A DNA stretch of 22,072 nucleotides, taken from Planctomycetota bacterium. Its GTDB lineage: Bacteria > Planctomycetota > Brocadiia > Brocadiales > Bathyanammoxibiaceae. This document shows, in pieces, positions 2,750-22,072 of the stretch. Location: contig JAUVQR010000005.1 of the NCBI GenBank assembly GCA_030598065.1, positions 1 through 22,072 on the forward strand, read 5' to 3'. Position 1 is the stretch's first letter. Each line of letters opens with the position of its first letter. Made by a program: the position numbers and the translations under genes. The notes below the pieces were generated by a model. It was not told the origin of the DNA. It did no database searches and worked only from the letters and a program-made list of their open reading frames with translations.

Positions 2750-3949
2750 TTATTCCTGCTGATATTCTTTGAGCACGCCTTCCAGAATCGCAATCCCCTC
2801 GTCTATATGCTTTTTCCTGACGTTGAGGGGCGGCATAAACCGGAGGACCTTCTCCTGCGTGCAGTTGAGAAGAAGACCCTTCTCCATACATCTCTTTACC
2901 ACGGTCATCCCCTCCTTCTTGAGCTCAACACCTATCATAAGGCCGACGCCCCTCACTTCCTTTACAAGGTCTCCAAATCTCTCGGCAAGGGAGTTAAGCC
3001 TCTCCATAGAATACGCGCCCATCTCGGAGCAATTCTCCAACAGCCCCTCTATCCGAATCGTGTCGAAGACGGCCACACCGGCCGCGCAGGCCAGCGGGTT
3101 TCCGCCAAAAGTGGTGGCGTGGCTGCCGGGCACAAGGCTCTTGGCAAGCTCGGCCCTTGCCGTCATCGCGCCGATTGCCGTGCCGTTGCCGAGCGACTTG
3201 GCAAGCGTCATAATATCCGGAGTTATTCCGTAGTGCTGGTACGCGAAATACTTCCCCGTGCGCCCCATGCCGCACTGGACCTCATCCAGTATCAGCAGCA
3301 GCCTGTGCTCATCACAGAGACGCCTCAGGCCCTTGAGATACTCCTGGGATGCGATATTTATCCCTCCCTCGCCCTGTATCGGCTCCAGCATCACCGCGCA
3401 TGTCTTGTCGTCAACGGCCTCTTTGACCGCATCAAGGTCATCAAACGGCACAAAGGTAAAACCCTCGAGCATGGGCGAGAAACCTTTGTGATACTTCGGT
3501 TGTGCGGTCGCGGCGAGCGCGGCCATGGTGCGTCCGTGAAAGGAGTTATGCATGGTAATTATCTTGTACCTCTCCTGAGGGCTGTAGTGTATCCTGGCCA
3601 GCTTGATTGCCGCCTCGTTGGCCTCGGCGCCGCTGTTACAGAAGAAACACATGCCGCCGAAGGAGCTGTCTGATATCAGCTTTGCCAGGGCCCCCTGGGG
3701 CTCTGTGTAGAAAATGTTCGGGGCATGGACGAGCGTCTTGGCCTGCCTGCTGATGGCGCTTGTCACCCTGGGATGACAGTGACCCAGATTGCTCACCGCC
3801 CAGCCGGAAAAGAGGTCCAAGTACCTCTTGCCCTCGCTATCCCACAGGTACATACCCTTACCCCTGGTAAGGACCACCGCGTTTCTGATATAATTGGGTA
3901 CGACGTATTTTTTAAAACTCTCTATCGTGCTGTTAGTATCCGTTTTCAC
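2750..3949 (-). CDS. argD: Acetylornithine aminotransferase (class III PLP aminotransferase)
   Basis: 399-aa ORF with a GTG start. It carries LILDEVQCGMGRTGK and the PLP-lysine segment DIMTLAKSLGNG. Placement directly upstream of argF supports ArgD over other class III enzymes. Confidence 0.88.
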   Translation of the reverse strand: MKTDTNSTIESFKKYVVPNYIRNAVVLTRGKGMYLWDSEGKRYLDLFSGWAVSNLGHCHPRVTSAISRQAKTLVHAPNIFYTEPQGALAKLISDSSFGGMCFFCNSGAEANEAAIKLARIHYSPQERYKIITMHNSFHGRTMAALAATAQPKYHKGFSPMLEGFTFVPFDDLDAVKEAVDDKTCAVMLEPIQGEGGINIASQEYLKGLRRLCDEHRLLLILDEVQCGMGRTGKYFAYQHYGITPDIMTLAKSLGNGTAIGAMTARAELAKSLVPGSHATTFGGNPLACAAGVAVFDTIRIEGLLENCSEMGAYSMERLNSLAERFGDLVKEVRGVGLMIGVELKKEGMTVVKRCMEKGLLLNCTQEKVLRFMPPLNVRKKHIDEGIAILEGVLKEYQQE

Positions 3950-10313: not shown

Positions 10314-10342
10314 TTGACATCCATTGCCACAACCGATAGAAT
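10314..10342 (+). promoter_or_regulatory. Near-consensus sigma70-type promoter heading the acpS/radical-SAM/KS operon
   Basis: TTGACA (10314-10319), a 17-nt spacer, then TAGAAT (10337-10342). The TTG used as the start of the computed ORF is the -35 hexamer itself. Confidence 0.6.
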
Positions 10343-10391
10343 CCGTACACTTATAGATTGTTTTCTACCGTGCATTTTTAGAGGAGTGGGG

Positions 10392-10766
10392 GTGTTCATA
10401 GGCATAGACCTGGTAGAAGTAGAACGCATCCAGGACCTTTTTACCAGGCATAAGTCTTTTTTGGGACGTGTCTACACCCCGGGAGAGATAGAATACAGCT
10501 TCTCTAAGAAAAATACGTTTGAGCACCTGGCCGCCAGATTTGCCATAAAAGAGGCCGTTGTGAAGGCCCTGGGCACGGGGATGAAGTGGACAGACATTGA
10601 GATGCTAAATGATTCTTCGGGAAGGCCTTACCTCAATCTACATGGCAGGGCGAAGGAAATGGCAAAGGAAAAGGGCGTGGGTGCGTGGGATGTCTCTGTA
10701 ACGCACACCAAAGGACACGCGATAGGGCAGGTATTATTGGTAACCGGCACGCCGTCACGCAAATGA
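10392..10766 (+). CDS. acpS: Holo-[acyl-carrier-protein] synthase (4'-phosphopantetheinyl transferase, AcpS type)
   Basis: The GTG at 10392 has AGAGGAG 6 nt upstream and gives VFIGIDLVEVERI..., the canonical AcpS N-terminus. FAIKEAVVKALG and the ~124-aa size fit the AcpS family. Confidence 0.85.
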   Translation: MFIGIDLVEVERIQDLFTRHKSFLGRVYTPGEIEYSFSKKNTFEHLAARFAIKEAVVKALGTGMKWTDIEMLNDSSGRPYLNLHGRAKEMAKEKGVGAWDVSVTHTKGHAIGQVLLVTGTPSRK

Positions 10767-10839
10767 GCGTTTTGCGTGAACGTACTCAATCAGGGCAAAT
10801 GATACAGGCACGACAAGAATACGTGGAAAGAGAACCGTA

Positions 10840-12318
10840 ATGGCAAACAAAAGAAAACTGGTGCTTATCAACCCGCATCCAAAGGGAAACGTGGGCGAAG
10901 AGAACGTCTCCGTGCTGACCCAGATGCCGGTAAACCTGGGATATCTGATATCATTGACCCCGGAGCACTGGGACGTGGACATAATAGACGAGACCCAGGA
11001 ACATGCCATAGACGACAACGACAACCTCGCCTTCCCGGGGGCGGACCTGGTCGGCATAACGTCTGTCAGCTATCAGGCCCCGCGGGCGTATAAGATAGCG
11101 GCCGCCTGCCGGAAGAAAGGTATTCCGGTGGTGATGGGCGGCGTGCATGCGACCATTTACCCCAATGAGGTGGCCAAGCACGTAGACTGCGTGGTGCAGA
11201 GGGAGGCCGTCTCTATCTGGGAAACACTTTTGTCGGACTTTGAGCACGGACGCCTCCAGAAGCTCTACGAAGGAGGTCTGACGCCCCTTGAAAATCTTAA
11301 GTTAATCTACCCCGACCGCGAATTCCTGAAAGAAAAATACGGATACCGTTACTCCGGCATTACAACAACGGCCGGTTGCCCGTTCACCTGTGAATTTTGC
11401 TCTGTGCCGCAGGCCCAGGGGCAAAAGTACCGCGAGAGGCCCATTGAAGACGTACTGGATGAAATGCAGGCCATCGAGGGTAAGTTCCGGGGGCTGGTGC
11501 TCACGGACGAAAATTTCTACGGACACAGTAAGAAGTCGAACGAAAGGGTCAGAAGCCTGTTCAAGGAGATGGTGGACAGGGGGATTTACCAGAACTGGTT
11601 CGGTTTTACCTCGCTCAACATATTTGAGGACGACGAGACCCTGGACTACATGGTCAGGAGCGGTTGCGTCGGAGTGCTCATAGGGATAGAGTCATTGAAC
11701 AAAGACGCCCTGGAGTCGATGAACAAGCACGTCAACCTGCGAATAACGATAGACAAGTATTACGAAGCGATTAATAACATCCGCAAGCATGGCATAGCCG
11801 TGTGGGGAACCGTAATCTTTGGCAACGACGCTGACTCGGTGGACACATTCGACGAGGTTGCAGATTTTGTGCTGGATACCAACCTTGATATAATGACCTG
11901 CGGAATACTTTGCCCGTTTATCAACACACCTCTCTACAAACGCCTGGAGAAGGGCAACAGGCTCTTCCGCACTGATTTCCCGGACGATTGGGTACATTAC
12001 ACGTCCCACCACCTCGTTCACATCCTTAACAACCTTTCCATTCATGAACTGTCTGACGGGATGGAACGCCTAAAAGAGCGTCTTTGGTCCACGGAGGTTA
12101 TCAGGAAAAGGTTCCAAAATTCGAGACAGGTGCTCAACAACAACAATTCCGCCATGTTTGCCCTCAAGGTCAACTGGGACTGGCGGGAAGTCATTGCACA
12201 CTTCATCGACAACCTGAACAAACTGGAAGCCTCCGGCGTCTACCAAGAAGCCCTCGACCGAATTGGCAAGAAGGAAAGATTCAACGAGGCCTCCAGCCTG
12301 CTAACCACAAAGGTCTAG
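10840..12318 (+). CDS. B12-binding-domain radical SAM enzyme (class B), paralogue 1
   Basis: 492 aa. The N-terminal cobalamin-binding-type Rossmann segment reads LVLINPHP...GITSVSYQAPRAYKIAAACRKKGIPVVMGGVHAT. The radical SAM cluster motif CPFTCEFC spans 11377-11400. The C-terminal region may be DUF4070-like, which is unverified. Confidence 0.88.
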   Translation: MANKRKLVLINPHPKGNVGEENVSVLTQMPVNLGYLISLTPEHWDVDIIDETQEHAIDDNDNLAFPGADLVGITSVSYQAPRAYKIAAACRKKGIPVVMGGVHATIYPNEVAKHVDCVVQREAVSIWETLLSDFEHGRLQKLYEGGLTPLENLKLIYPDREFLKEKYGYRYSGITTTAGCPFTCEFCSVPQAQGQKYRERPIEDVLDEMQAIEGKFRGLVLTDENFYGHSKKSNERVRSLFKEMVDRGIYQNWFGFTSLNIFEDDETLDYMVRSGCVGVLIGIESLNKDALESMNKHVNLRITIDKYYEAINNIRKHGIAVWGTVIFGNDADSVDTFDEVADFVLDTNLDIMTCGILCPFINTPLYKRLEKGNRLFRTDFPDDWVHYTSHHLVHILNNLSIHELSDGMERLKERLWSTEVIRKRFQNSRQVLNNNNSAMFALKVNWDWREVIAHFIDNLNKLEASGVYQEALDRIGKKERFNEASSLLTTKV

Positions 12319-12334
12319 AAGAGATACCCATATT

Positions 12335-13540
12335 ATGTCCAGAGTAGTTGTAACAGGCCTTGGTTTAGTGACAGCCATTGGTTCAAACTTAAAGGAATCC
12401 TGGGAAGCGATGCTTAACGCCCAGGACGGTACCGCAGAAATCACATCGTTTGACACCTCCAAGTACAGGGTCCACCGCGCCTGCGAATTAAAGTCTTTGA
12501 ATTCAAACGGCAACAATAAGCAGAAGGAAAAATATAACGTTTACGATTGCCTGTACGCAGCGGCCAAAGACGCCTTTCAGGACAGCGGCATATCCGATTG
12601 CCAGCACCTTCAGCCCGACAGAGTGGGTATTTCCATCGGGACACTGGCCGGAGAGCTATCCGCCTTTGAGCAGACGCTCAGGAAACACCCCAACAACAAG
12701 GCTGACGGGTTCAGTATGGACGTGGTCTGCAGTTATCCTCCCATGACCCTGTCTACCCAACTGGCGGAAGATTTCAACGTTGAAGGCCCTAACGTTATAC
12801 TGATAAACGCCTGCTCATCGGGCAACCATGCACTGTGCTGGGCCTTCGACATGCTGCAGGACGGAAGTGTCGACGCGATGGTGGTGGGCGGCAGCGACGT
12901 GGTGCCGCAAACGGAATTTACCCACTTCCACAACCTGAAGGCGCTGGCGCCGGAAAAATGCCAGCCCTTTGACAAGAACAGGCAGGGCCTGGTGGTGGGC
13001 GCAGGAGCCGGAGTGCTCATCCTTGAGACCTTTGAACACGCGAAGAAGCGCGACGCAAAAATATATGCGGAAGTCATGGGCTACGGCCTTAGCAGTGACG
13101 GTTTTCACATGACCGCTCCTCACCCGAAAGGAGTAGGCGCCATCAGGGCTATGGAAAAGGCCCTCACACACTCAAAGCTCTCTTACAAGGACATAGACTA
13201 TATAAGCGCGCACGGCACGGGTACGTCGCTAAACGACAAGATGGAGACGCTTGCACTCAAGGCCGTCTTCAAGGAAAGGGCTAAAGAGACCCCGTGCAGT
13301 TCGGTGAAGTCTATGATCGGCCATACCATGGGGGCCGCAAGCGCCATCGAGTCGGTAGTTTGTTGTCAGACGATAAGTTCCGGTGAACTCCCGCCAACCA
13401 TAAATTACGAGACAAAGGACCCGGAATGCGACCTGGACTGCGTACCGAATGAGGCGCGAAAAAAGCCGGTTAAATTCGCCCTGAATAATTCCTTTGCCTT
13501 TGGCGGTAACAATGCCAGTACTGTCTTTGGTAGGGTATGA
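12335..13540 (+). CDS. Beta-ketoacyl synthase, FabF/KAS II-like, with an intact Cys-His-His triad
   Basis: 401 aa. The active-site Cys160 sits in INACSSG (tgc at 12812-12814). The two histidines are in SAHGTGTSLND and KSMIGHTMGAAS. Confidence 0.9.
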   Translation: MSRVVVTGLGLVTAIGSNLKESWEAMLNAQDGTAEITSFDTSKYRVHRACELKSLNSNGNNKQKEKYNVYDCLYAAAKDAFQDSGISDCQHLQPDRVGISIGTLAGELSAFEQTLRKHPNNKADGFSMDVVCSYPPMTLSTQLAEDFNVEGPNVILINACSSGNHALCWAFDMLQDGSVDAMVVGGSDVVPQTEFTHFHNLKALAPEKCQPFDKNRQGLVVGAGAGVLILETFEHAKKRDAKIYAEVMGYGLSSDGFHMTAPHPKGVGAIRAMEKALTHSKLSYKDIDYISAHGTGTSLNDKMETLALKAVFKERAKETPCSSVKSMIGHTMGAASAIESVVCCQTISSGELPPTINYETKDPECDLDCVPNEARKKPVKFALNNSFAFGGNNASTVFGRV

Positions 13541-14775
13541 AAAGAAGGGTAGCAATAACCGGCATAGGCGTAATCTCTCCGCTGGGGTTTGGACATGAGG
13601 AGTTCTGGAAGAACCTCACCGAAGGCCGCACCGCGATAGGCCCGATAACGTCTCTGGACGTATCGAACTACCCCTGCAAATTGGCCGCGGAAGTCAAGGG
13701 CCTTAACCCGTCTGATTATCTGGGCGACAAGGGCCTCAAATATCTGACGAAAGGCACAAAGTTCCTTGCCTCCGCCTCAAAACTAGCCCTTGAAGACGCC
13801 GGCCTTATGCAGAGCAGCCACAACCCAGACGGCTTCGGTGTGATAATAGGCTCGGCTCTCGGCAACTATCCCCAAACCACTGACTACACGTATGTCATCC
13901 TCAAAGAGGGACCGGAAAAACTGCTGCCCATGGACAGTTATGACGTCGCTCTAAACTCGTCCACCAACTTTGCCTCGGTATTCTTTAAACTCACCGGTCC
14001 CTCAAGAACCATCACCTCGGGCTTCACGTCCAGCACCGACGCCATCGGCAACGCCTTCACCCTGGTGCAAAAAGGCAGGGCCGACGTGCTGATAGCCGGC
14101 GGGGTGGAACAGATATCTCTCGACAGTTACCTTATATTCCTGATGCGAAAACTGCTGGCGGGCTCACAAGACTCCACGCCGGAGATAAGCGCACCGTTCG
14201 ACATGCGTCGGAACGGGTTCATACTCAGCGAGGGCAGTTACGTCTTCGTGCTGGAGGATATGGAATCCGCGACCAGGCGGGGCGCGCGCATATACGCGGA
14301 AGCGACGGGTCACGGCTTGACCTACATGGGGGCAAAGAGGTTCAGCCTGGAAGAAAAGGTAGACAAGGCCAAGGCCGCCATGGAGCAGGCGCTCCAGCGG
14401 GCCGGGCAGCCGAAGGAGTCGCTTGCGTTAATCTGCGCCAACGGCAACTCCTCTACGCAAACGGACCTCATAGAGGCCAGGGCAATCCAGTCGCTGCTGG
14501 GGGACCGCACCAAGGAGGTGCCGGTCTGTTCCGTAAAGTCTCAGTGCGGTGAATGTTATGGCGCTTCCGGAGCGATGCAGATGGCCTTGTGCCTGCTGGC
14601 TATCGAGAAATCTGCCATCCCGCCCATGATAGGCTATGAAGTGCCAGACAAAGAGTGCGACCTGGGTTTTGTGCTCAATCAGGAGCGCAGGCAAGACACG
14701 AAGGTCGCAATGGTGAACAGCCTCGACCACGACGGAAACTGCTCCTGCCTTATACTTGAAAAAAGGGATATGTAA
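13537..14775 (+). CDS. Ketosynthase-like partner lacking the catalytic triad (chain-length-factor-like)
   Basis: 412 aa with a KS fold. Aligned by eye to the upstream KS, Cys becomes Phe163 (ttc at 14023-14025, TSGFTSS), the first His becomes Asn (ICANGNSS) and the second His becomes Glu (CGECYGA). Its ATG overlaps the KS stop (GTATGA at 13537-13540). Confidence 0.85.
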   Translation: MKRRVAITGIGVISPLGFGHEEFWKNLTEGRTAIGPITSLDVSNYPCKLAAEVKGLNPSDYLGDKGLKYLTKGTKFLASASKLALEDAGLMQSSHNPDGFGVIIGSALGNYPQTTDYTYVILKEGPEKLLPMDSYDVALNSSTNFASVFFKLTGPSRTITSGFTSSTDAIGNAFTLVQKGRADVLIAGGVEQISLDSYLIFLMRKLLAGSQDSTPEISAPFDMRRNGFILSEGSYVFVLEDMESATRRGARIYAEATGHGLTYMGAKRFSLEEKVDKAKAAMEQALQRAGQPKESLALICANGNSSTQTDLIEARAIQSLLGDRTKEVPVCSVKSQCGECYGASGAMQMALCLLAIEKSAIPPMIGYEVPDKECDLGFVLNQERRQDTKVAMVNSLDHDGNCSCLILEKRDM

Positions 14776-14805
14776 TCCCGCCCGCAGTGGCTATAATAGT
14801 GCGCC

Positions 14806-14826
14806 AGCAGGACCTTTTGTCCTGCT
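14806..14826 (+). other. Stem-loop between the KS pair and the reductase gene (possible attenuator or partial terminator)
   Basis: AGCAGGAC (14806-14813), loop CTTTT, then GTCCTGCT (14819-14826), followed by TCATTAGTTTAT. A lone TATAAT lies just upstream at 14792-14797. Confidence 0.4.
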
Positions 14827-14857
14827 TCATTAGTTTATATAACCACCACATCTAAAA

Positions 14858-16867
14858 ATGGTCGGCTTATTTGACCCAATAAACATAGGTACACTCACGT
14901 TAAAGAACCGTCTGGTTATGACGGCCATGGACCTTGGCTACTCAAACGACGGCCTTGTCAACGACCGTTTTATCGATTTCTACACCGAGAGGGCCGACGG
15001 CGGCACGGGCCTTATCGTCGTAGGCGGATGCTACCCGGAGCGGAACGGCAAGGTATGGAAGAGCATCCTCGGACTGGACGACGACCGCTGCATACCTTCT
15101 CTCACCAGATTCACCGAGGCCATGCACCGCCACGGCGCCAAGACCGCGGCCCAGATACTGCACGGCGGGCGTTACGCCTCCAGCCTGTTCTCCAAAATGC
15201 AGCCCGTCTCGGCGTCAAACATACCGTCACGCCTGGCCAGAGACACCTCCAGGGCTCTGAGCGCCTCTGAAATTAAACAGGTCATACATGGCTACGCGAC
15301 GGCCACAAAAAGAGTAAAAGAAGCCGGTTTTGACGCCGTGGAGATTCACGGTGGCATGGGCTACCTCATCAACCAGTTCCTGTCTCCTATAAGCAATAAG
15401 AGGTCTGACGAATATGGGGGCGGCCTGGATAACAGAATGCGCTTTGCCGTGGAGACCATTGAGGCCATTAGAGAGTCAGTGGGTGACGACTTCCCCATAA
15501 TCTTCAGGCTGTCCGGGGATGAGCTGATGGAGGGCGGTCTCAAGGTCCGGGACAACATAGAAGTAGCCCAGAGACTGGCAAAGGTCGGCGTGGACGCCTT
15601 CCACGTATCTCCCGGCTGGCACGAAAGCAAGGTGCCTATAATGATAATGGTAATCCCGAGGACGGCCTACGCTGTACTGGCCGCCGCCATACGGGAGAAC
15701 GTGGACATACCGGTTATATCCGGCATACGGATTAATGACCTGGCGCTGGCCGACGAACTGCTCAGGGACGGACAGACCGACCTGGTAGCCATAGGCAGGC
15801 CCCTGATAGCCGACCCCGAGCTGCCAAAGAAGTATAAGGAGGGAAGACTCGAAGATATAAGGACCTGCATCGCGTGCAATCAGGGCTGTTTCGACGAGCT
15901 CCTCAATATGAGACCGGTCACCTGCCTGTACAATCCCAGAGCGGGCCGAGAACGGGAGTATAACGTAACGCCCGCGGCTAAAAAGAAAAAGGTCATGGTG
16001 GTCGGCGGCGGTCCCGGAGGGATGGAAGCCGCCAGTGTCGCGGCGCAGAGGGGGCACGACGTGACCCTGTACGAAAAAACGGGGATACTGGGAGGCCAGC
16101 TCTGCTACGCCTACAAACCGCCCGGCCGTGAGGAATTCGCCAACGTGATTACCTATCTGAAGAGGCAGGTCAAGAAGGAAGGAGTAAAGGTGGTCCTGGG
16201 AGTGGAAGTGACCCCGGAGACCGTCAAGACGGAACAACCCGACACACTGATAGTGTCGACCGGCTCTACGCCGTCGGTACCGCCGATACCCGGCATAAAC
16301 AGCGATAGCGTGGCGCTGGCAATGGACGTGTTGGACGGAAAGGCGCCGGTTGGCCGGGAGGTAGTCATAATCGGCGGCGGGACTGTGGGCACCGAGACCG
16401 CCCTGTATGTGGCAAAGCTGGGCAGCATGCGGCCGGACGTAGCCATGTTCCTGCTGAAGAACGACATAATAGACCTGCCGACTGCCCTTAAGAAGGTCTC
16501 CAGGGGCCACAGAAACGTCACCATACTCGAGATGAAGAGGAGGGTGGGCGGCGGTTTTGGCATCTCCACCCGCTGGGTTATGGAAAGGGAGATAGAGGAC
16601 GCAGGCATAAAATCAATTACAAAAATAACGGTCAAAGAGATAAGGCAAGGACCTGAAGGCTGTGTGGTGGTGTACGAAAAGGACGGAAAGGAGACGTATA
16701 TACCCGCGGATACGGTTATAATCGCCACAGGCTACATCCCCAACGACACACTGTCCAAACACCTGAACGGCCTTGTACCTGAGGTATACACCATCGGTGA
16801 TTGTGTAAAGGTAAGGACCGCGTTGGAGGCGATTCATGAAGGTTTTAAGATCGGGCTCACTGTATGA
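14858..16867 (+). CDS. FadH-type 2,4-dienoyl-CoA reductase / enoate reductase family flavoprotein (OYE-like FMN domain, 4Fe-4S, FAD/NAD(P) domain)
   Basis: 669 aa, compared with 672 aa for E. coli FadH as I recall it. It has an OYE-like N-terminus, the cysteine motif CIACNQGCFDELLNMRPVTCLYNP and the dinucleotide fold VMVVGGGPGGMEAA. Confidence 0.87.
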   Translation: MVGLFDPINIGTLTLKNRLVMTAMDLGYSNDGLVNDRFIDFYTERADGGTGLIVVGGCYPERNGKVWKSILGLDDDRCIPSLTRFTEAMHRHGAKTAAQILHGGRYASSLFSKMQPVSASNIPSRLARDTSRALSASEIKQVIHGYATATKRVKEAGFDAVEIHGGMGYLINQFLSPISNKRSDEYGGGLDNRMRFAVETIEAIRESVGDDFPIIFRLSGDELMEGGLKVRDNIEVAQRLAKVGVDAFHVSPGWHESKVPIMIMVIPRTAYAVLAAAIRENVDIPVISGIRINDLALADELLRDGQTDLVAIGRPLIADPELPKKYKEGRLEDIRTCIACNQGCFDELLNMRPVTCLYNPRAGREREYNVTPAAKKKKVMVVGGGPGGMEAASVAAQRGHDVTLYEKTGILGGQLCYAYKPPGREEFANVITYLKRQVKKEGVKVVLGVEVTPETVKTEQPDTLIVSTGSTPSVPPIPGINSDSVALAMDVLDGKAPVGREVVIIGGGTVGTETALYVAKLGSMRPDVAMFLLKNDIIDLPTALKKVSRGHRNVTILEMKRRVGGGFGISTRWVMEREIEDAGIKSITKITVKEIRQGPEGCVVVYEKDGKETYIPADTVIIATGYIPNDTLSKHLNGLVPEVYTIGDCVKVRTALEAIHEGFKIGLTV

Positions 16868-16942
16868 TTTAACCGCGGGTTCCTTCGCCGTAAGATGTGC
16901 CGGGCCTGACGGACACACATTACAACAACTTGGAGAATCAAC

Positions 16943-17686
16943 ATGTCTTTAAAAGGAAAGGTCGCTGTCGTTACGGGCGGCACCAGGGGCATCGGGAGGG
17001 CGATAGCGCTTGAGCTCGCCGCGAACGGCGTGGACGTCGCCTTCTGCTACGCCAAGAACGTCGAAAAGGCAAAAGAGGTAGAGAGTGAGATAAAGAAGCT
17101 GGGCGTAAGGGCGCTGCCGATGCAGAGTGACGTCTCCGACTTCGCTCAGTCAAAAGAAATGATAGCTAACGCCATAAAGGAGCTCGGTAAGATTGACCTG
17201 CTGGTCAACAACGCCGGCATAACCAGAGACAAGATAATCATGATGATGTCGGAGGATGACTGGAAGTCGGTCATAGACACCAACCTGACCGGCGTCTTCA
17301 ACTGCACAAAGGCCGCCGTGGTACCGATGATGAAGCAGAGGAGCGGCTCCGTAATAAACATAACCTCCGTCAGCGGTCTTGTCGGGATGGCGGGCCAGAC
17401 CAACTACTCGTCCTCAAAGGCGGGGATAATCGGGTTTACCAAGGCGCTGGCCAAGGAGGTGGCCAGACGGGGAGTCAGGGTCAACGCCATAGCCCCCGGA
17501 TTCATTGACACCGAGATGGTGCAGGCCATCAACCAGAAATACCTGGACGAGATGCTGAAACTGGTGCCCCTTGCCCGCGTAGGCAAGGCCGAGGAGGTGG
17601 CACACGTGGTGACGTTCCTGGCCTCAGACCAGGCCAGCTATATAACGGGCTGCGTAATCAACGTAGACGGCGGCATGGCCATGTGA
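16943..17686 (+). CDS. fabG: 3-oxoacyl-ACP reductase (SDR family)
   Basis: 247 aa with GGAG 8 nt upstream. It carries VTGGTRGIGRAIA, NNAG and the catalytic S...YSSSK motif. Confidence 0.9.
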   Translation: MSLKGKVAVVTGGTRGIGRAIALELAANGVDVAFCYAKNVEKAKEVESEIKKLGVRALPMQSDVSDFAQSKEMIANAIKELGKIDLLVNNAGITRDKIIMMMSEDDWKSVIDTNLTGVFNCTKAAVVPMMKQRSGSVINITSVSGLVGMAGQTNYSSSKAGIIGFTKALAKEVARRGVRVNAIAPGFIDTEMVQAINQKYLDEMLKLVPLARVGKAEEVAHVVTFLASDQASYITGCVINVDGGMAM

Positions 17687-17737
17687 CGCCCCTGGGCCGC
17701 GGCAAAACATAAACACTAGACGCGAGGTGAGACCCCC

Positions 17738-18088
17738 ATGCTCTTTCTTGTGAAGGTAGAGATAGAAAAACTTAACCAGATGCCGGTCAAGGATTTTTTT
17801 CAGCTCTTGATAAAGGAATGGGAGTTTTATGAACGGATGAAGAAGAGGGGCAAGGTGCTGGCGGGCGGAAAGCTGGCCGGGAGACGCGGGGCGGCGGCCA
17901 TCTTCGACGCCGAGGACCACGCCGAAATCGAGGCAATCGTGACAAGACTGCCGCTCTTCCCCCTGTTCACAAAGATAGAGATAACGCCGCTGGTGGACCA
18001 GGAAAAGGCCCTGCTGGACGCCCGCAGGATGTTTCAGATGGTGAAAGACCTCGATACCATGATATTCCCCCCGGACAAACCATCATAA
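17738..18088 (+). CDS. Muconolactone delta-isomerase-like small alpha+beta barrel protein
   Basis: 116 aa with GAGGTGA upstream. MLFLVKVEI..., ...IFDAEDHAEIEAIVTRLPLFPLFTKIEITPL aligns by eye with CatC-type MLFHVKM...FDV...LPLFPYMDIEV. Confidence 0.65.
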   Translation: MLFLVKVEIEKLNQMPVKDFFQLLIKEWEFYERMKKRGKVLAGGKLAGRRGAAAIFDAEDHAEIEAIVTRLPLFPLFTKIEITPLVDQEKALLDARRMFQMVKDLDTMIFPPDKPS

Positions 18089-18159
18089 AATTATAAAATT
18101 AGCGTCCGCGGCAGGGCGCACCCTTATACGCTGCAAGCTACATGCAGAAAGGAAGTCTG

Positions 18160-18893
18160 ATGAAACTGGTAAGGATTCTTCATGCCGTTCTTTTTTTGTT
18201 ATGCCTGACGGCATTGACCCAGGACGTGCGCGCGGAACAGGCGGAAAAAGAGACGGCCGGGAAGCCGCACGTAGACGTAGGCACCTTCCTTCAGGAAACG
18301 TTTAAGATGAAGGTGGGCGGCAATATGAGCACCCTCGCCGCCTGGCTGCCGTTCGAGTTCTACGTGGAATCCGCTTACGCCGAAGGCGGTCAATCCAGGG
18401 AACTCCTGAGAAAAGATTTTCAATTCATACAGCCGTACCTCACCATAATCGTTCAAAGCAGCGTTGACCAGCTGGACGGCACCGCTTCGTACGAGAGTGA
18501 AGAAGCCATCCGCGCAAGGGCCGTGGTGAGACAGAAGGACGTGCCGAGGTCAAGCCGCTGGACGCCAAGGATATACCTCCTATGGTATCTGCCACCATGA
18601 TAGCCATGAAGTCAATATTATCGGCGGAAGGCGACCCCAGCGGGGCCAACATGCACGTCCTGGTGTTTCCAAACAAGGGCAAGGACGGCAAACCCATAAT
18701 CGACGCCACAAAGAAGGGTAAGCTGGTGCTGGTGCTGAAACCCGACAAGCAGTTCAACGAGACCGTGTTTATGTGGCGCACCCCGTTCGACGCGATGACC
18801 GCCGCCCCCCCATGCGCCAAGTGCGGAGAGAACCTTTCCGCCCAGTGGTCATACTGCCCCTGGTGCGGCGCCGAACTGCCCCATACGCACTAA
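18160..18893 (+). pseudogene. Signal-peptide protein with a C-terminal zinc ribbon, split by an apparent 1-nt frameshift near 18540
   Basis: ORF 18142-18600 probably starts at 18160 (GGAAG upstream) and begins with the signal peptide MKLVRILHAVLFLLCLTALTQDVRA|EQ. ORF 18582-18893 is open in the -1 frame from 18501. Reading across gives ...VVRQKD / (G)AEVKPLDAKDIPPMVSAT.... The C-terminus reads CAKCGENLSAQWSYCPWCG. Confidence 0.5.
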
Positions 18894-18915
18894 ATGGTAG
18901 ACGACGCGCAGGTGT

Positions 18916-18932
18916 TGTCATTCTGAGCGAAG
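18916..18932 (+). repeat. Copy 2 of repeat core TGTCATTCTGAGCGAAG
   Basis: It is an exact match to 8775-8791. It begins 23 nt after the stop at 18893. Confidence 0.7.
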
Positions 18933-19002
18933 TACCGGGTAGCGCAGGGTCGTACCGTAGGCAGATTCGCCTTTGGCGAACTTTCGCCCTGCCGTTCTCC
19001 AT

Positions 19003-19058
19003 GTAGTTGCCCCATTTATGGGACCTTATAAACGCGCTCGATGAATCGAGCAACTACA
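19003..19058. repeat. Nested inverted-repeat element
   Basis: Outer arms TGTAGTTGC (19003-19011) and GCAACTACA (19050-19058) enclose two small hairpins, CCCAT..ATGGG and GCTCGAT..ATCGAGC. Confidence 0.55.
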
Positions 19059-19087
19059 ACCCCTCAATTGCCTCCCGTCACTCAGGT

Positions 19088-19105
19088 TGTCATTATGAGC
19101 CAAAG
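19088..19105 (+). repeat. Copy 3 (degenerate) of the repeat core
   Basis: TGTCATTATGAGCCAAAG, preceded like copy 2 by GT (copy 1 has AA there), and followed by ...GAGCGCAGCGAAGGGACAGCGAAGGATC. Confidence 0.5.
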
Positions 19106-19208
19106 CCCTGAGCGCAGCGAAGGGACAGCGAAGGATCTGTCGGGTGCCGTGCCAGAGGCAGGTCCGCCTACAGCGTGACGTTTTAACGTGCCATTATACA
19201 ATCGGGGG

Positions 19209-19237
19209 AAAAAAAAGGGCACGACATCGTCGTGCCC
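19209..19237 (-). terminator. Rho-independent terminator of the minus-strand CrtI-like/radical-SAM operon
   Basis: The minus strand reads GGGCACGAC-GAT-GTCGTGCCC (19237-19217) followed by T8 (19216-19209), about 70 nt after the stop at 19309. A second 8-bp hairpin, CGCAGGGC/GCCCTGCG (19267-19286), lies between the stop and this terminator. Confidence 0.85.
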
Positions 19238-19308
19238 CTACGTTTATTTTATTATGAAGCGGGTAGCGCAGGGCTTTAGCCCTGCGGCGCCACCTTGAAG
19301 GTTGTTGA

Positions 19309-20754
19309 CTACGCCGGGAGTGAGATGGTCCTTTCCTGCGTGGAGTAGGTGTCTTTGTAGTAGTCGCCGGATTCCTGCAGCTTGCGCAGGTTTTCAAGGA
19401 CCTGCAAGAAAACCTGGTCCCAGTCCTGGCTGACCCTGAGGGCGAACATGGAGTTGCGCGGGTCGCTGGTCTCCTGCATCGAGACCCTGAATTTCTTGCG
19501 GATGTTGTCGCCCGCGTACACGTTGTCGTAGACGTACTGCATGCCGTCAACAAACTCGTCCAGCGTCATGTCCACAAACTTGTGGACCACGTTGGCGGTC
19601 TCGTAATACTCCCAGTCCTCCGGCAGATTCCTACGAAACAGCCTTTTTTCGGAATCCAGCCTGTAGAATAACGGCGTCTTGGGAAAGGGACAATCCAGAC
19701 CATACGTAAGGATGTCTACCTTGCAGTCGTGTACAAAATCCACCATCTTCTTGAAAGAATCCTTGTCGTCGCCGTCGGCGCCGAAGACGACCGAGGCCCA
19801 TACGATAAGCCCCGCGTCATGTATCTTCCTGATACACTCCTTATAATTAGTGGCTCCCAGTTTCAGATTCACCCTCTTGCCCATCTTCTTGAGCACTTCG
19901 GGGTTGGTGCTCTCTATGCCTACCAGGAAGCCGAAGTTGCCGGACTTTCTCATCAACTGAAGCGCCTCCGCGTCCTGCGAGATATTGAGCGCGGTAAAGC
20001 CCAGCCAGTCCTTCTTGAGTTCCCTGTCTATCATGCCCCGGAAGAGTTCCTTGGCGCGCTCGGCGGAGCGCACGCTGTGACCGTAGAAATTGTCTTCGGC
20101 GAACATCAGGCCCTTATAGTCGGTGGCCGCCATCTCCTCCAGCACGTCTTCAACGGGCCGCTCACGGTATTTTTGTCCCTGGAAGGTGGGTACGCTGCAG
20201 AAATCGCAGCGGTTGGGGCAACCCTTGGTGGTTACTATAGAAGAGAACTTGTAGCCGTACTTCTTCTTCAAGAGTTCTCTGTCGGGATGTACTTTCTTAA
20301 GGATTGACAGGTGGGGAAGACCGCCGTCGTAGCGTTTCTGGAGCTTACCGGCCTCGAAGTCCTTTATGACCTGCGGCCAGACAGTTTCAGCTTCACCCGT
20401 GATGACCGTATCCACGTACTGCACCGCCTCTTCGGCACACACGGAGGCGTGGATACCGCCCATTATCGTGGTGCAGCCATGTTTCTTGGCCAGCTTGGCG
20501 ATATGGTAGGCGCGCGGGGCCTGATAAGTCAGGGCCGTGAGACATACTATGTCAGGGGGGTCAAAGGTTATATCGTCTCCGGCGTCATTCAGCGCCGACT
20601 CGATGTTCTCGTCTACAACGTCAAACTCCCAATCGTCGCCCGGCGTGAGCGCTGCGATATAGCCCAGATTCAACGGCATCTGGACTATTACGCTTATGCT
20701 CTCCTCGCCGTGACGGCCCGGAGGATGAGGGTTCACGAGCATCATCTTCTTCAT
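19309..20754 (-). CDS. B12-binding-domain radical SAM enzyme (class B), paralogue 2
   Basis: 481 aa and colinear with the 10840-12318 product; roughly half the positions are identical by eye. Shared strings include NPHP, QMPxNLGY, YQAPRAY, MGG(I/V)HA, GKLQK, GQKYRERP and NSMFALxV. The cluster motif CPNRCDFC spans 20197-20220. GGGAGA lies upstream, inside the end of the preceding gene. Confidence 0.88.
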   Translation of the reverse strand: MKKMMLVNPHPPGRHGEESISVIVQMPLNLGYIAALTPGDDWEFDVVDENIESALNDAGDDITFDPPDIVCLTALTYQAPRAYHIAKLAKKHGCTTIMGGIHASVCAEEAVQYVDTVITGEAETVWPQVIKDFEAGKLQKRYDGGLPHLSILKKVHPDRELLKKKYGYKFSSIVTTKGCPNRCDFCSVPTFQGQKYRERPVEDVLEEMAATDYKGLMFAEDNFYGHSVRSAERAKELFRGMIDRELKKDWLGFTALNISQDAEALQLMRKSGNFGFLVGIESTNPEVLKKMGKRVNLKLGATNYKECIRKIHDAGLIVWASVVFGADGDDKDSFKKMVDFVHDCKVDILTYGLDCPFPKTPLFYRLDSEKRLFRRNLPEDWEYYETANVVHKFVDMTLDEFVDGMQYVYDNVYAGDNIRKKFRVSMQETSDPRNSMFALRVSQDWDQVFLQVLENLRKLQESGDYYKDTYSTQERTISLPA

Positions 20755-20758
20755 AACC

Positions 20759-22072
20759 TTATCTCCCGTCTCTTAATATCATATTTGCTACCCGCCAACC
20801 GGAAGACACAACCGCACACACTCCCGGCCCGGGGTTGGTCCAATGCCCCGCGAGGTAGAGGTTCTCTACCGGGGTCTTGTTAGCGGTCCTGCCCGGACCC
20901 GTCTGCCCTAACGTGACGGCCCATCCGTAGGCAGCGCCCTTCGCATTCAGCGTATAACGCTCAAGCGTCTTGGGCGTCGCCGCGTCCACCACCTCGATGT
21001 GCTTCTCAAGATTGGGCACAAAACCCTCAAGGTAGCGTATTGTACCCTTCGTAAGTCTATCTTTCAAGTCTTTCCAGTTCTCAATCTCGTCGTATTTTTC
21101 CTCTATAGTGGCCACCACGGTTATCTCCTGCCGGCCTTTTGTCGCAAGCGACTGGTCCACCATGGTAGGCGCCGATATGTACTTCCACTGATGGTTCGGG
21201 CTATGATAAAAGCCTCTCTTAAAATTACTTAGGTTAATTTCCGGGTCAAGCCCCAAATACAGTAGAAAATATGATGGACTTTCCTTCATCCCCCTCATCC
21301 TGTCCATAAACGCGGGGTCAACCTGTTCTTTATCCTTTATCAGTTTAAAAAAAGTCTGTCTGGCGTCAATGTTTGATATTACGTATTCCGCGCCGATATC
21401 GCCGCCCTCATCCAGTCTCACGCCTGCCACCCTGTTGCCCTTGAGAAACATCTCTTCCACCCTGGAAGACAGCAGCAGGTCGCCGCCGGAATCCCTGAGT
21501 TTTTTGGCAAATGCGTCGGCAAAGCCTTGCGTGCCCCCCCTCGGATACCATGCGCCGTCTCTGAGATAGTTCACCAGCATCTGGCACATGCCTATGCTAG
21601 AGACCTCGTGGGCCGGCGAGCCAAGATAACCCCACTGTCCCGCCAGCGTCGCCTTCAGTTCCGGATCGTCGAAGAAGCCGTCCAGCATGGCGCCGTATGT
21701 TTTTTCCCTATACCTCTCAAGGGTGGGGCTACGCTCCGATTCATTTATTATCGCCCTGTAGAGTTTTACGAGCTCGCCGAAGAACCCGGATATGTTCTCC
21801 TTCTCTGCGGGATATCTCTTCTGCAGGGACGACTGATAGTCGTCAATGTCGGCCGGAATCTCTACAGAGAACGAGGGGAATATGAGGTTGTCCATCGGGT
21901 CCAGCCTGAAAAAATCCAATTCTATTTCCAGCTCTTTCAGGCATCTGTCCACGATGCTGTACTTGCCGCAGCCGCCTATATGGTGCACGGCGGCATCGAA
22001 GAGGAATCCCCCGCGTTTGAATGAAGTGCAATAGCCCCCGGGGATATTGTGCTGCTCTACGACCAGCGTCCT
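20759..22072 (-). CDS. FAD-dependent oxidoreductase of the phytoene desaturase (CrtI)/amine-oxidase superfamily, 5' end outside the window
   Basis: The frame stays open to the window edge (RTLVVEQHNIPGGYCTSFKRGGFLFDAAVHHIGG...), so the computed start at 21988 is an internal GTG. The C-terminal motif LYLAGHWTNPGPGVCAVVSSG is present. The stop lies 4 nt before the radical SAM ATG. Confidence 0.82.
   Translation of the reverse strand, partial: RTLVVEQHNIPGGYCTSFKRGGFLFDAAVHHIGGCGKYSIVDRCLKELEIELDFFRLDPMDNLIFPSFSVEIPADIDDYQSSLQKRYPAEKENISGFFGELVKLYRAIINESERSPTLERYREKTYGAMLDGFFDDPELKATLAGQWGYLGSPAHEVSSIGMCQMLVNYLRDGAWYPRGGTQGFADAFAKKLRDSGGDLLLSSRVEEMFLKGNRVAGVRLDEGGDIGAEYVISNIDARQTFFKLIKDKEQVDPAFMDRMRGMKESPSYFLLYLGLDPEINLSNFKRGFYHSPNHQWKYISAPTMVDQSLATKGRQEITVVATIEEKYDEIENWKDLKDRLTKGTIRYLEGFVPNLEKHIEVVDAATPKTLERYTLNAKGAAYGWAVTLGQTGPGRTANKTPVENLYLAGHWTNPGPGVCAVVSSGWRVANMILRDGR

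Follow-up and report, generated by a model that had tools for sequence, protein, structure and literature searches.

Two adjoining gene modules in a Bathyanammoxibiaceae genome as candidates for an acyl carrier protein-dependent lipid pathway, most likely that of ladderanes

The DNA analysed here, called the window throughout, is a stretch of 22,072 nucleotides from a Brocadiales genome of the family Bathyanammoxibiaceae (assembly GCA_030598065.1, contig JAUVQR010000005.1), and from position 10,314 onward it carries ten genes arranged as a plus-strand operon and a minus-strand pair. On balance, we favour the interpretation that this region holds most of a dedicated two-module lipid pathway that resembles fatty acid and polyketide synthases (FAS/PKS) and depends on the anammox acyl carrier protein (ACP) amxACP, and that this pathway is most likely the one leading to ladderanes. 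The gene set would belong to an anammox-specific type II FAS/PKS-like line, the same set that others have put forward, so far without proof, as the source of ladderane lipids in anammox Planctomycetes; a first, sequence-only reading of this DNA had noted as much, and the literature bears it out. That reading also pictured a chain built on an ACP and then edited by flavoenzymes and radical S-adenosylmethionine (SAM) enzymes, an idea that we judge to be right. It erred in describing the cluster as an orphan and as a related but distinct variant, since its genes map one-to-one to kuste2802-2805 (plus strand) and kuste3607-3608 (minus strand) and the window, coming from a Brocadiales genome, contains orthologs of the published candidates themselves. 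The alternative that the reading allowed for, a match to some pathway already characterised down to its product, holds in part: the pathway is a known candidate, and its product is still unproven.

Lipid biochemists have been asking since 2002 how ladderanes are made, anammox bacteria being without genetics and the pathway not having been reconstituted, and the literature as of 2026 describes almost nothing as known about ladderane biosynthesis. Both gene clusters were already known as ladderane candidates and the window is a rediscovery of them in a further lineage; the supercluster arrangement, a conserved extension of one operon and homologs outside anammox bacteria are new, and these are modest additions. 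The window presents the candidate clusters in their most compact form and thus offers a concrete list of genes with which to attempt reconstitution, in a heterologous host or in vitro, with three further enzymes of the same operon (an ene-reductase, a FabG and an isomerase-like protein) as candidates beyond the earlier list.

The plus-strand operon corresponds to kuste2802-2805 and extends beyond it

The plus-strand operon, hereafter Module II, begins with acpS (10392..10766), which codes for a holo-ACP synthase scoring above the cut-offs of PF01648 and TIGR00516. It continues with a B12-binding radical SAM enzyme (radical SAM 1, 10840..12318), a ketosynthase (KS, 12335..13540) with its Cys-His-His triad intact, and a second KS-like gene (13537..14775) whose start overlaps the KS stop codon as ATGA. 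The product of the latter, referred to as dead KS, resembles a chain-length factor (CLF) and has lost the catalytic residues by the substitutions Cys163 to Phe, His298 to Asn and His333 to Glu. In Kuenenia, kuste2802 is described as an ACP synthase, kuste2803 as a SAM radical enzyme, kuste2804 as FabF and kuste2805 as a non-canonical FabB (Javidpour 2016, PMC4790861). Judged by sequence, the four window genes are one-to-one orthologs of these published candidates, in the same order.

Several comparisons carry this assignment. The order AcpS-rSAM-KS-deadKS (rSAM, radical SAM enzyme) recurs in a Kuenenia-type locus, L087, in the related loci L075 and L076 and, without AcpS, in L079. The L087 proteins are 52% (AcpS), 68% (rSAM), 56% (KS) and 51% (dead KS) identical to those of the window, in each case more than the identity to the paralog in the second published candidate cluster, Cluster I (kuste3603-3608). 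Radical SAM 1 is 68% identical to the protein cluster of P0050, whose locus is L087 and which contains K. stuttgartiensis CAJ73554.1, versus 51% to Kuste3608; since accession numbering is consecutive and Kuste2805 is CAJ73556, CAJ73554.1 corresponds to Kuste2803. The window KS is likewise only 47% identical to Kuste3605. Active-site residues reported for Kuste2805 (CAJ73556) are Phe163, Asn298, Asn300, Cys302, Lys328 and Glu333 (Rattray 2009, PMC2649909 Table 2), and the window dead KS, with F163/N298/N300/S302/K328/E333, agrees at five of these six positions and the dead KS of L087 at all six, whereas the signature of Kuste3606 (V/N/Y/G/K/E) is unlike it.

The nearest homologs of radical SAM 1 come from Brocadiales metagenome-assembled genomes (MAGs), with an 87% match named Planctomycetes bacterium RIFCSPHIGHO2_02_FULL_50_42, and its 90% cluster has members named Candidatus Bathyanammoxibius. 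The FULL_50_42 and FULL_50_35 MAGs have been assigned to the family Ca. Bathyanammoxibiaceae (PMC9723696), which branches deeply within the anammox order. Three sets of contigs are syntenic with the window throughout, including the arg/Mla/MatE flank: L003/L004 (74-88% protein identity), L077 (~95%) and L080/L081 (99.3% DNA identity). In the 99%-identical L080 the acpS gene call is 124 aa long.

Unlike kuste2802-2805 of Kuenenia, which ends at the dead KS, the window operon goes on and adjoins Cluster I. It continues with a FadH-type FMN/[4Fe-4S]/FAD ene-reductase, similar to 2,4-dienoyl or enoyl-thioester reductases (14858..16867), a FabG-type 3-oxoacyl-ACP reductase (16943..17686) and a 116-aa protein of the muconolactone isomerase (MIase) fold (17738..18088). 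The extended operon was found in Bathyanammoxibiaceae (window, L003/L004, L077, L080/L081), Brocadiaceae (L075), Scalindua (L076) and a relative of Anammoxibacter (L079). The last three continue with FadH-like, crotonase (ECH), FabG and MIase-like genes, the crotonase lying between FadH-like and FabG at L075:18831-19637, L076:7605-8438 and L079:16120-16935. Neither a crotonase gene nor a remnant of one could be found at this place in the window (16868-16942) or in any Bathyanammoxibiaceae contig, where the gap measures 75-195 nt. The FadH-like gene is kept in the operon in L075, L076, L079, L003 and L077. The arrangement is far beyond chance: at least four anammox lineages share this gene order, although their proteins are only 50-69% identical.

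In the Kuenenia-type locus L087 (9578-13960) AcpS-rSAM-KS-deadKS stand alone and are followed by PIN/AIPR/methylase defence genes and mobile genes, while FabG and the MIase-like gene lie together at a separate locus (L084:9070-10345; Kuenenia member CAJ74413.1). FabG is always paired with the MIase-like gene, even where the Kuenenia operon is fragmented. This fragmentation probably explains why the operon extension never became a listed candidate, and Module II of the window retains the ancestral 3' extension.

Two further radical SAM genes were seen in these comparisons. An additional Kuste3608-like gene (77% identity) lies on the minus strand of L079 (20394-21464), about 9 kb downstream of Module II and beside a transposase. 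A radical SAM 1-like protein of L078 (56% identity) was set aside, as it stands alone beside GCV_T and acyl-CoA dehydrogenase genes, an unrelated context.

Cluster I ends with the minus-strand pair

On the minus strand, a phytoene-desaturase-like flavoprotein gene (PDH-like, or CrtI-like; 20759..22072) precedes a second B12-binding radical SAM gene (radical SAM 2, 19309..20754). The former codes for a protein with an Amino_oxidase domain that is 56% identical to Kuste3607, and the latter for a protein 71% identical to Kuste3608. They are orthologs of the last two of the six genes of Cluster I (Dietl 2023, Granatino 2026), and two of the six therefore lie inside the window. The PDH-like open reading frame (ORF) passes beyond base 22072, so that its N-terminal FAD-binding motif is cut off; its full length is 477 aa in L080.

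A tblastn search of the window found no gene for ACP, FabZ or crotonase, and FabH, FabD, ACP, FabZ/A and FabI are all absent from it, which means that the window does not contain a canonical FAS II operon. The sequence-only reading had made an argument of the missing ACP and FabZ. The absence from the window stands, but the argument was an artefact of the window end and falls, because four missing genes lie directly beyond base 22072: in L080/L081 this space holds an amxFabFmut-type gene (427 aa), an amxFabF2-type gene (406 aa), FabZ (149 aa) and ACP (90 aa). Looking past the window end for an ACP and a dehydratase, as had been advised, thus yielded both, together with a second KS/dead-KS pair. 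The order amxACP, amxFabZ, amxFabF2, amxFabFmut, PDH, rSAM is complete when PDH and rSAM of the window are taken together with the other four genes in L080/L081 and L005-L015.

Scanning a genome collection with an alignment of the PDH-like proteins returned 70 loci, and all 70 keep the order ACP-FabZ-KS-deadKS-PDH-rSAM as far as each contig reaches. All but two of them (L019 and L062) come from genomes labelled Scalindua, Brocadia, Kuenenia, Jettenia, Anammoxibacter, Loosdrechtia, Subterrananammoxibius or, generically, Brocadiales or Planctomycetota. The 'Thermodesulfobacteriota' label of L019 (CAXMPV010000082.1) was rejected and the contig judged to be, in all likelihood, mis-binned Scalindua, given its 39% GC and Scalindua-like identities across Cluster I.

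The host lineage has its own variant of the Cluster I dead KS. In L080 (14364-15647, minus strand) the amxFabFmut-type subunit carries Glu where Cys163 would be and Asp in place of His333; in published sequences from other anammox genera, Cys163 is replaced by Val or Thr, and the histidine positions are occupied by Glu, Cys or Asn. The FabZ beyond the window has a sub-threshold match (103 bits against a cut-off of 140) to AmcE, the cyclising decarboxylase of cispentacin biosynthesis.

The PDH-like protein scores 127 bits against the 238 of the CrtI family model TIGR02734, a comparison made with the N-terminally cut protein, and kuste3607 failed to replace CrtI in vivo (PMC4790861). A carotenoid pathway was rejected on these grounds, as were aryl-polyene and aromatic type II PKS pathways: phytoene synthase, aromatase and cyclase genes are missing, and the KS and PDH models stay below their cut-offs.

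The two modules adjoin one another and complement each other

Module II and Cluster I are neighbours in three different arrangements: convergent in Bathyanammoxibiaceae, where both lie within ~15 kb, divergent and head-to-head in L079, and fused in one direction in L062. In Scalindua, Brocadia and Kuenenia the two are far apart. That adjacency arose in three different arrangements argues for a functional coupling of the modules.

Their enzyme sets point in the same direction. Cluster I encodes an ACP, a dehydratase, KS/CLF, PDH and rSAM, and has no ketoreductase, enoyl reductase or phosphopantetheinyl transferase (PPTase). An ene-reductase, a ketoreductase and a PPTase are found in Module II, along with rSAM, KS/CLF and the isomerase-like protein, whereas ACP and dehydratase are missing there. 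A full elongation cycle is encoded by the two modules combined but by neither alone, and the combination lacks only a malonyl transferase. In rough neighbour-joining (NJ) trees, calculated without bootstrap, the Module II KS is sister to amxFabF2, the Module II dead KS is sister to amxFabFmut, and the two radical SAM groups are sister clades. Because the paralogs pair as sisters, KS, CLF and rSAM appear to have been duplicated as a block.

These data also bear on the simplest alternative, namely that housekeeping copies of AcpS, FabF and FabG happen to lie beside an unrelated radical SAM/flavoprotein pair. AcpS and FabG do score as bona fide housekeeping-type enzymes (for FabG, TIGR01830 gives 331 bits against a cut-off of 298), the flanks are of housekeeping type and the space between the two operons is variable. 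Against this stand the operon order kept across four diverged anammox lineages, the joining of the modules in three arrangements, and a dead KS that cannot be a housekeeping enzyme; canonical FabF, FabH, FabD and ACP are moreover found elsewhere in Kuenenia, at kustd1386-1391 (PMC4790861). Accidental adjacency is therefore effectively refuted by the synteny data, and we give it next to no weight. The check that the sequence-only reading had asked for, whether the genes stay together in related genomes, accordingly came out in favour of conserved adjacency.

Family tests of the individual enzymes

Both radical SAM proteins exceed the cut-offs of PF02310 and PF04055 and have CxxxCxxC motifs (CPFTCEFC and CPNRCDFC), and by these domains and motifs both belong to class B, the cobalamin-dependent enzymes. 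They are 47% identical to each other. Neither reaches TIGR04072 ('rSAM_ladder_B12', a lipid biosynthesis B12-binding/radical SAM protein), with 73.4 and 77.7 bits against a cut-off of 360, and this label was dropped. None of the curated equivalog models, those of methyltransferases included, was reached either, the best NCBIfam match being the methyltransferase PhpK at 98 bits against 600. HpnJ and BchE are also among the best NCBIfam matches, but at 72-80 bits against cut-offs of 481-578. With the non-methylating enzymes BchE, HpnJ and OxsB the window enzymes share an N-terminal B12-binding domain and the CxxxCxxC core; their predicted substrate would instead be an acyl-ACP. In a published sequence-similarity network, Kuste2803 clusters with the non-methylating BchE and HpnJ (PMC9204698).

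The nature of these enzymes opens a second alternative, in which Module II makes or tailors a different specialised lipid, for example mid-chain methyl-branched fatty acids, its B12-radical-SAM enzyme being a C-methyltransferase that acts on an unactivated carbon and its link to Cluster I being a shared ACP only. Fatty acids with a 10-methyl branch are also known from anammox bacteria. Among class B radical SAM enzymes methyltransferases predominate (PMC12931638, PMC9204698), and the best NCBIfam match, though far sub-threshold, is PhpK. The Module II operon is in separate pieces in Kuenenia, and a single-module relative (L083, below) occurs in a Planctomycetota MAG outside Brocadiales. Plain methylation, however, needs no KS/CLF pair, ene-reductase or isomerase of its own, the position of Module II beside Cluster I in three arrangements with complementary enzymes speaks against it, and the network places Kuste2803 with enzymes that do not methylate. 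We regard methyl branching as an unlikely explanation, though the one to be taken most seriously beside a ladderane pathway.

The KS and dead KS form a tandem of the KS/CLF kind: an active KS, a paralog lacking the Cys, and overlapping stop and start codons. The best Protein Data Bank (PDB) match of the dead KS is chain C of 9s5h, and we infer that 9s5h/9s5i are the anammox amxFabF2/amxFabFmut heterodimer. For that paralogous pair a physical KS/CLF heterodimer has been demonstrated, and it prefers C6-C8 chains (bioRxiv 10.64898/2026.05.19.726425). The same layout of active KS and dead paralog with overlapping stop and start, working on an ACP-tethered substrate, is known from type II PKS systems (actinorhodin ActI, ishigamide Iga11/12) and from AmcF/AmcG of cispentacin biosynthesis, itself a precedent for KS/CLF-type machinery that makes a small carbocycle. 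Differences are equally clear: the KS matches to AmcF reach 234-238 bits and stay below the cut-off of 325, aromatic-PKS chain-length factors have Gln at the Cys position where the window dead KS has Phe, and these systems have no B12-radical-SAM partners, whereas the window has no aromatase or cyclase genes.

The FadH-like protein aligns over its full length with E. coli FadH (1PS9, E 4e-129) and with the 2-naphthoyl-CoA reductase NCR (6QKG, E 1e-125). It has the FMN domain of the Old Yellow Enzyme type, the iron-sulfur cluster motif and the FAD/NAD(P)H domain expected of an Fe-S flavoenzyme ene-reductase, sharing the FMN, [4Fe-4S] and FAD/NADPH modules of FadH and NCR. Tyr166 and His252, which we take to be the catalytic residues of FadH, and the four-Cys CxxCxxxCx11C motif are conserved, and Glu164 is replaced by Met. 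FadH and NCR serve beta-oxidation and the degradation of aromatics, whereas the context of the window enzyme is biosynthetic and ACP-linked.

The MIase-like protein scores 55 bits against the PF02426 cut-off of 26.7, and its AlphaFold2 model (pLDDT 91.6) has ClcF and MIase as best PDB matches (TM 0.81-0.87, root-mean-square deviation 1.4-1.7 Å over 88 residues). Membership holds at the Pfam and fold level only, as the muconolactone isomerase equivalog TIGR03221 is not reached (41 bits against 130.6). Its Glu27 is nearly invariant among 29 homologs and is the residue mutated in PDB entry 3zo7 ('ClcFE27A'), so that fold and Glu27 position are common to the window protein and to muconolactone isomerase/ClcF at an identity of only 23-27%. 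The window protein differs from both by an extra C-terminal helix (residues 88-109), and aromatic-degradation genes are absent nearby. The family is small: only 72 homologs were found in an index of 5.8 billion proteins, nearly all on Brocadiales contigs. The protein is a probable proton-shift (double-bond) isomerase, presumably acting on an unsaturated thioester.

An enzyme set of this kind could also serve a third alternative, the synthesis of a linear conjugated polyene or polyunsaturated hydrocarbon or fatty acid without rings, in which the PDH-like, FadH-like and isomerase-like proteins would set the double-bond pattern, as in KS/CLF polyene systems or the pathway that Rattray proposed for Desulfotalea psychrophila. 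A KS/CLF pair with ketoreductase and dehydratase and without FabI is how type II systems that form polyenes are laid out (ishigamide Iga11/12, as cited in bioRxiv 10.64898/2026.05.19.726425), the gene set includes both a dienoyl reductase and a PDH-like flavoprotein, and synteny has been noted with D. psychrophila, which produces polyunsaturated hydrocarbons (Rattray 2009, PMC2649909). Anammox bacteria have nevertheless yielded no detectable polyunsaturated fatty acids (PMC10139942), both radical SAM enzymes fall outside TIGR04072, and a linear polyene leaves two B12-radical-SAM enzymes without a role. We hold this alternative to be improbable, more so than methyl branching.

Relatives outside anammox bacteria

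L062 (CAZYOL010000003.1) is a 61-kb contig with 69% GC from a MAG labelled uncultured Spirochaetales and is clearly non-anammox. Within its first 21,314 bases (L062:1-21314) lie the co-directional genes ACP-FabZ-KS-CLF-PDH-rSAM-rSAM-KS-CLF-FabG, whose products are 34-58% identical to their anammox counterparts. In the rough NJ trees KS1/CLF1 fall with the clades of Cluster I, and KS2/CLF2 with those of Module II. It is flanked by genes for a crotonase, two more B12 radical SAM enzymes, an alpha/beta hydrolase, an MBL-fold protein, an inositol-1-phosphate synthase and a phenylacetate-CoA-ligase-like protein. The L062 proteins might be easier to express.

L083 (QQUA01000023.1, 8551-20363) comes from a non-Brocadiales Planctomycetota MAG with 59% GC and has a single module, in which rSAM and KS are accompanied by FabG and a degenerate CLF-like protein of 332 aa, with FabH, ferredoxin and MIase-like genes ~6 kb from the rSAM-KS module. 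Module II may have here a simpler, or an ancestral, counterpart outside Brocadiales. Cluster I has been published as exclusive to ladderane producers (PMC10139942), and L062 and L083 weaken that exclusivity.

A proposed pathway and its weighing

For the ladderane pathway that we favour, the following course can be proposed. AcpS would prime amxACP. The KS and its translationally coupled dead KS, by analogy with the solved paralogous heterodimer, would act as a KS/CLF heterodimer that extends the amxACP-bound chain. Conserved catalytic residues suggest that FabG would reduce the 3-keto group and the amxFabZ beyond the window would dehydrate, that the FadH-type enzyme would reduce enoyl or dienoyl thioesters, and that the MIase-fold protein and the PDH-like flavoprotein would shift or introduce double bonds. 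More speculatively, and by analogy with BchE, HpnJ and OxsB, the two paralogous B12-radical-SAM enzymes might close the rings by radical C-C bond formation. Published amxFabZ is specific for amxACP and prefers chains of C8 or shorter (PMC10139942); because the published Cluster I enzymes have this preference, Module II might, again speculatively, handle later or bulkier intermediates.

Several points weigh against this interpretation. Although amxACP, amxFabZ and amxFabF2/amxFabFmut have been characterised, this was done without a link to product formation, and no experiment connects the genes of either cluster to ladderanes (PMC10139942; bioRxiv 10.64898/2026.05.19.726425). No new fatty acids appeared when kuste3603-3608 and kuste2802-2805 were expressed in E. 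coli, although most of the proteins were insoluble there (PMC4790861). As cited in PMC10139942, published isotope labelling of the ladder part does not fit a simple head-to-tail assembly of acetate. Ladderanes go unmentioned in the paper describing Bathyanammoxibiaceae (PMC9723696). To these come the prevalence of methyltransferases among class B radical SAM enzymes; the case that AcpS and FabG could simply be housekeeping copies; and the L062 and L083 relatives, by which the chemistry need not be ladderane-specific and there is room for another product.

The extension of Module II leads to a bolder proposal. In the earlier attempt, 34 candidate genes were expressed in E. coli, namely kuste3603-3608, 2802-2805, 3335-3352 and kustd1386-1391 (6+4+18+6) (PMC4790861), and the FadH-like, paired FabG and MIase-like genes are absent from these 34. 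We found no paper in the open-access literature that links MIase-like or FadH-like genes to anammox lipid clusters. Tentatively, and with rather less conviction than we attach to the ladderane pathway as such, we suggest that the FadH-type enzyme, the FabG paralog and the MIase-fold protein, with the crotonase in most lineages, could be integral members of the ladderane pathway that were overlooked because Kuenenia scattered them, and that their absence from the 34 candidates may have contributed to the failure in E. coli. The two KS/CLF/rSAM trios would then act sequentially on one amxACP-bound chain, and the ~15-kb Bathyanammoxibiaceae supercluster or the L062 fusion would be the minimal set.

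Transcription signals, flanks and the space between the operons

All ten genes were located where the sequence-only reading had placed them, and ORF listing with Pfam and NCBIfam profile searches upheld every one of its family assignments as well as its convergent two-operon layout. The promoter that it saw before the plus-strand operon and the terminator after radical SAM gene 2 are both present as sequence signals. The operon is preceded by a sigma-70-like promoter (TTGACA, 17 nt spacer, TAGAAT; 10314..10342, plus strand) with 11 of 12 consensus matches, and position 10314 belongs to its -35 box, not to the start of acpS; the gene begins at GTG 10392, preceded by a GAGGAG ribosome-binding site. 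Back to back with it, a divergent promoter (TTGACA-16-TATAAT; 10268-10241, minus strand) matches the consensus at 12 of 12 positions and points toward the MatE efflux gene. The terminator-like hairpin of the intrinsic type lies on the minus strand at 19239-19215, 3' of radical SAM gene 2, and consists of 11 pairs followed by a T-run. An Rfam scan of the window gave no match at gathering thresholds, cobalamin riboswitches included, and no tRNAs were found. The flanking genes are of housekeeping type (argB/D/F, Mla, RNase PH), with MatE also in the flank.

The last gene of the plus strand (18142..18893) codes for a secreted protein whose C-terminus forms a zinc ribbon and is frameshifted, as had been noted before. 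The frameshift is real relative to the intact ORFs of 244 and 253 aa in L080 and L077, contigs that are 99.3% and 90% identical to the window, and is due to the loss of one nucleotide relative to them near 18541, which may stem either from a sequencing error or from recent pseudogenisation. Because the neighbours at this place vary among relatives (L003 has a gene with an MrcB_N domain there and L077 an extra SIR2-like gene), the secreted protein and the inter-operon spacer were judged to lie outside the cluster, and the gene is probably variable filler between the operons without a part in the pathway. Near the N-terminus of the secreted protein, an AEQ-rich repeat differs in length by 27 nt, in frame, between the window and L077. 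In the spacer that follows (18894-19308) a GTTGTCATTCTGAGCGAA-type repeat occurs twice, a CGGGTAGCGCAGGG motif recurs and an inverted repeat of 18 nt is present; the spacer looks like a small dispersed repeat element.

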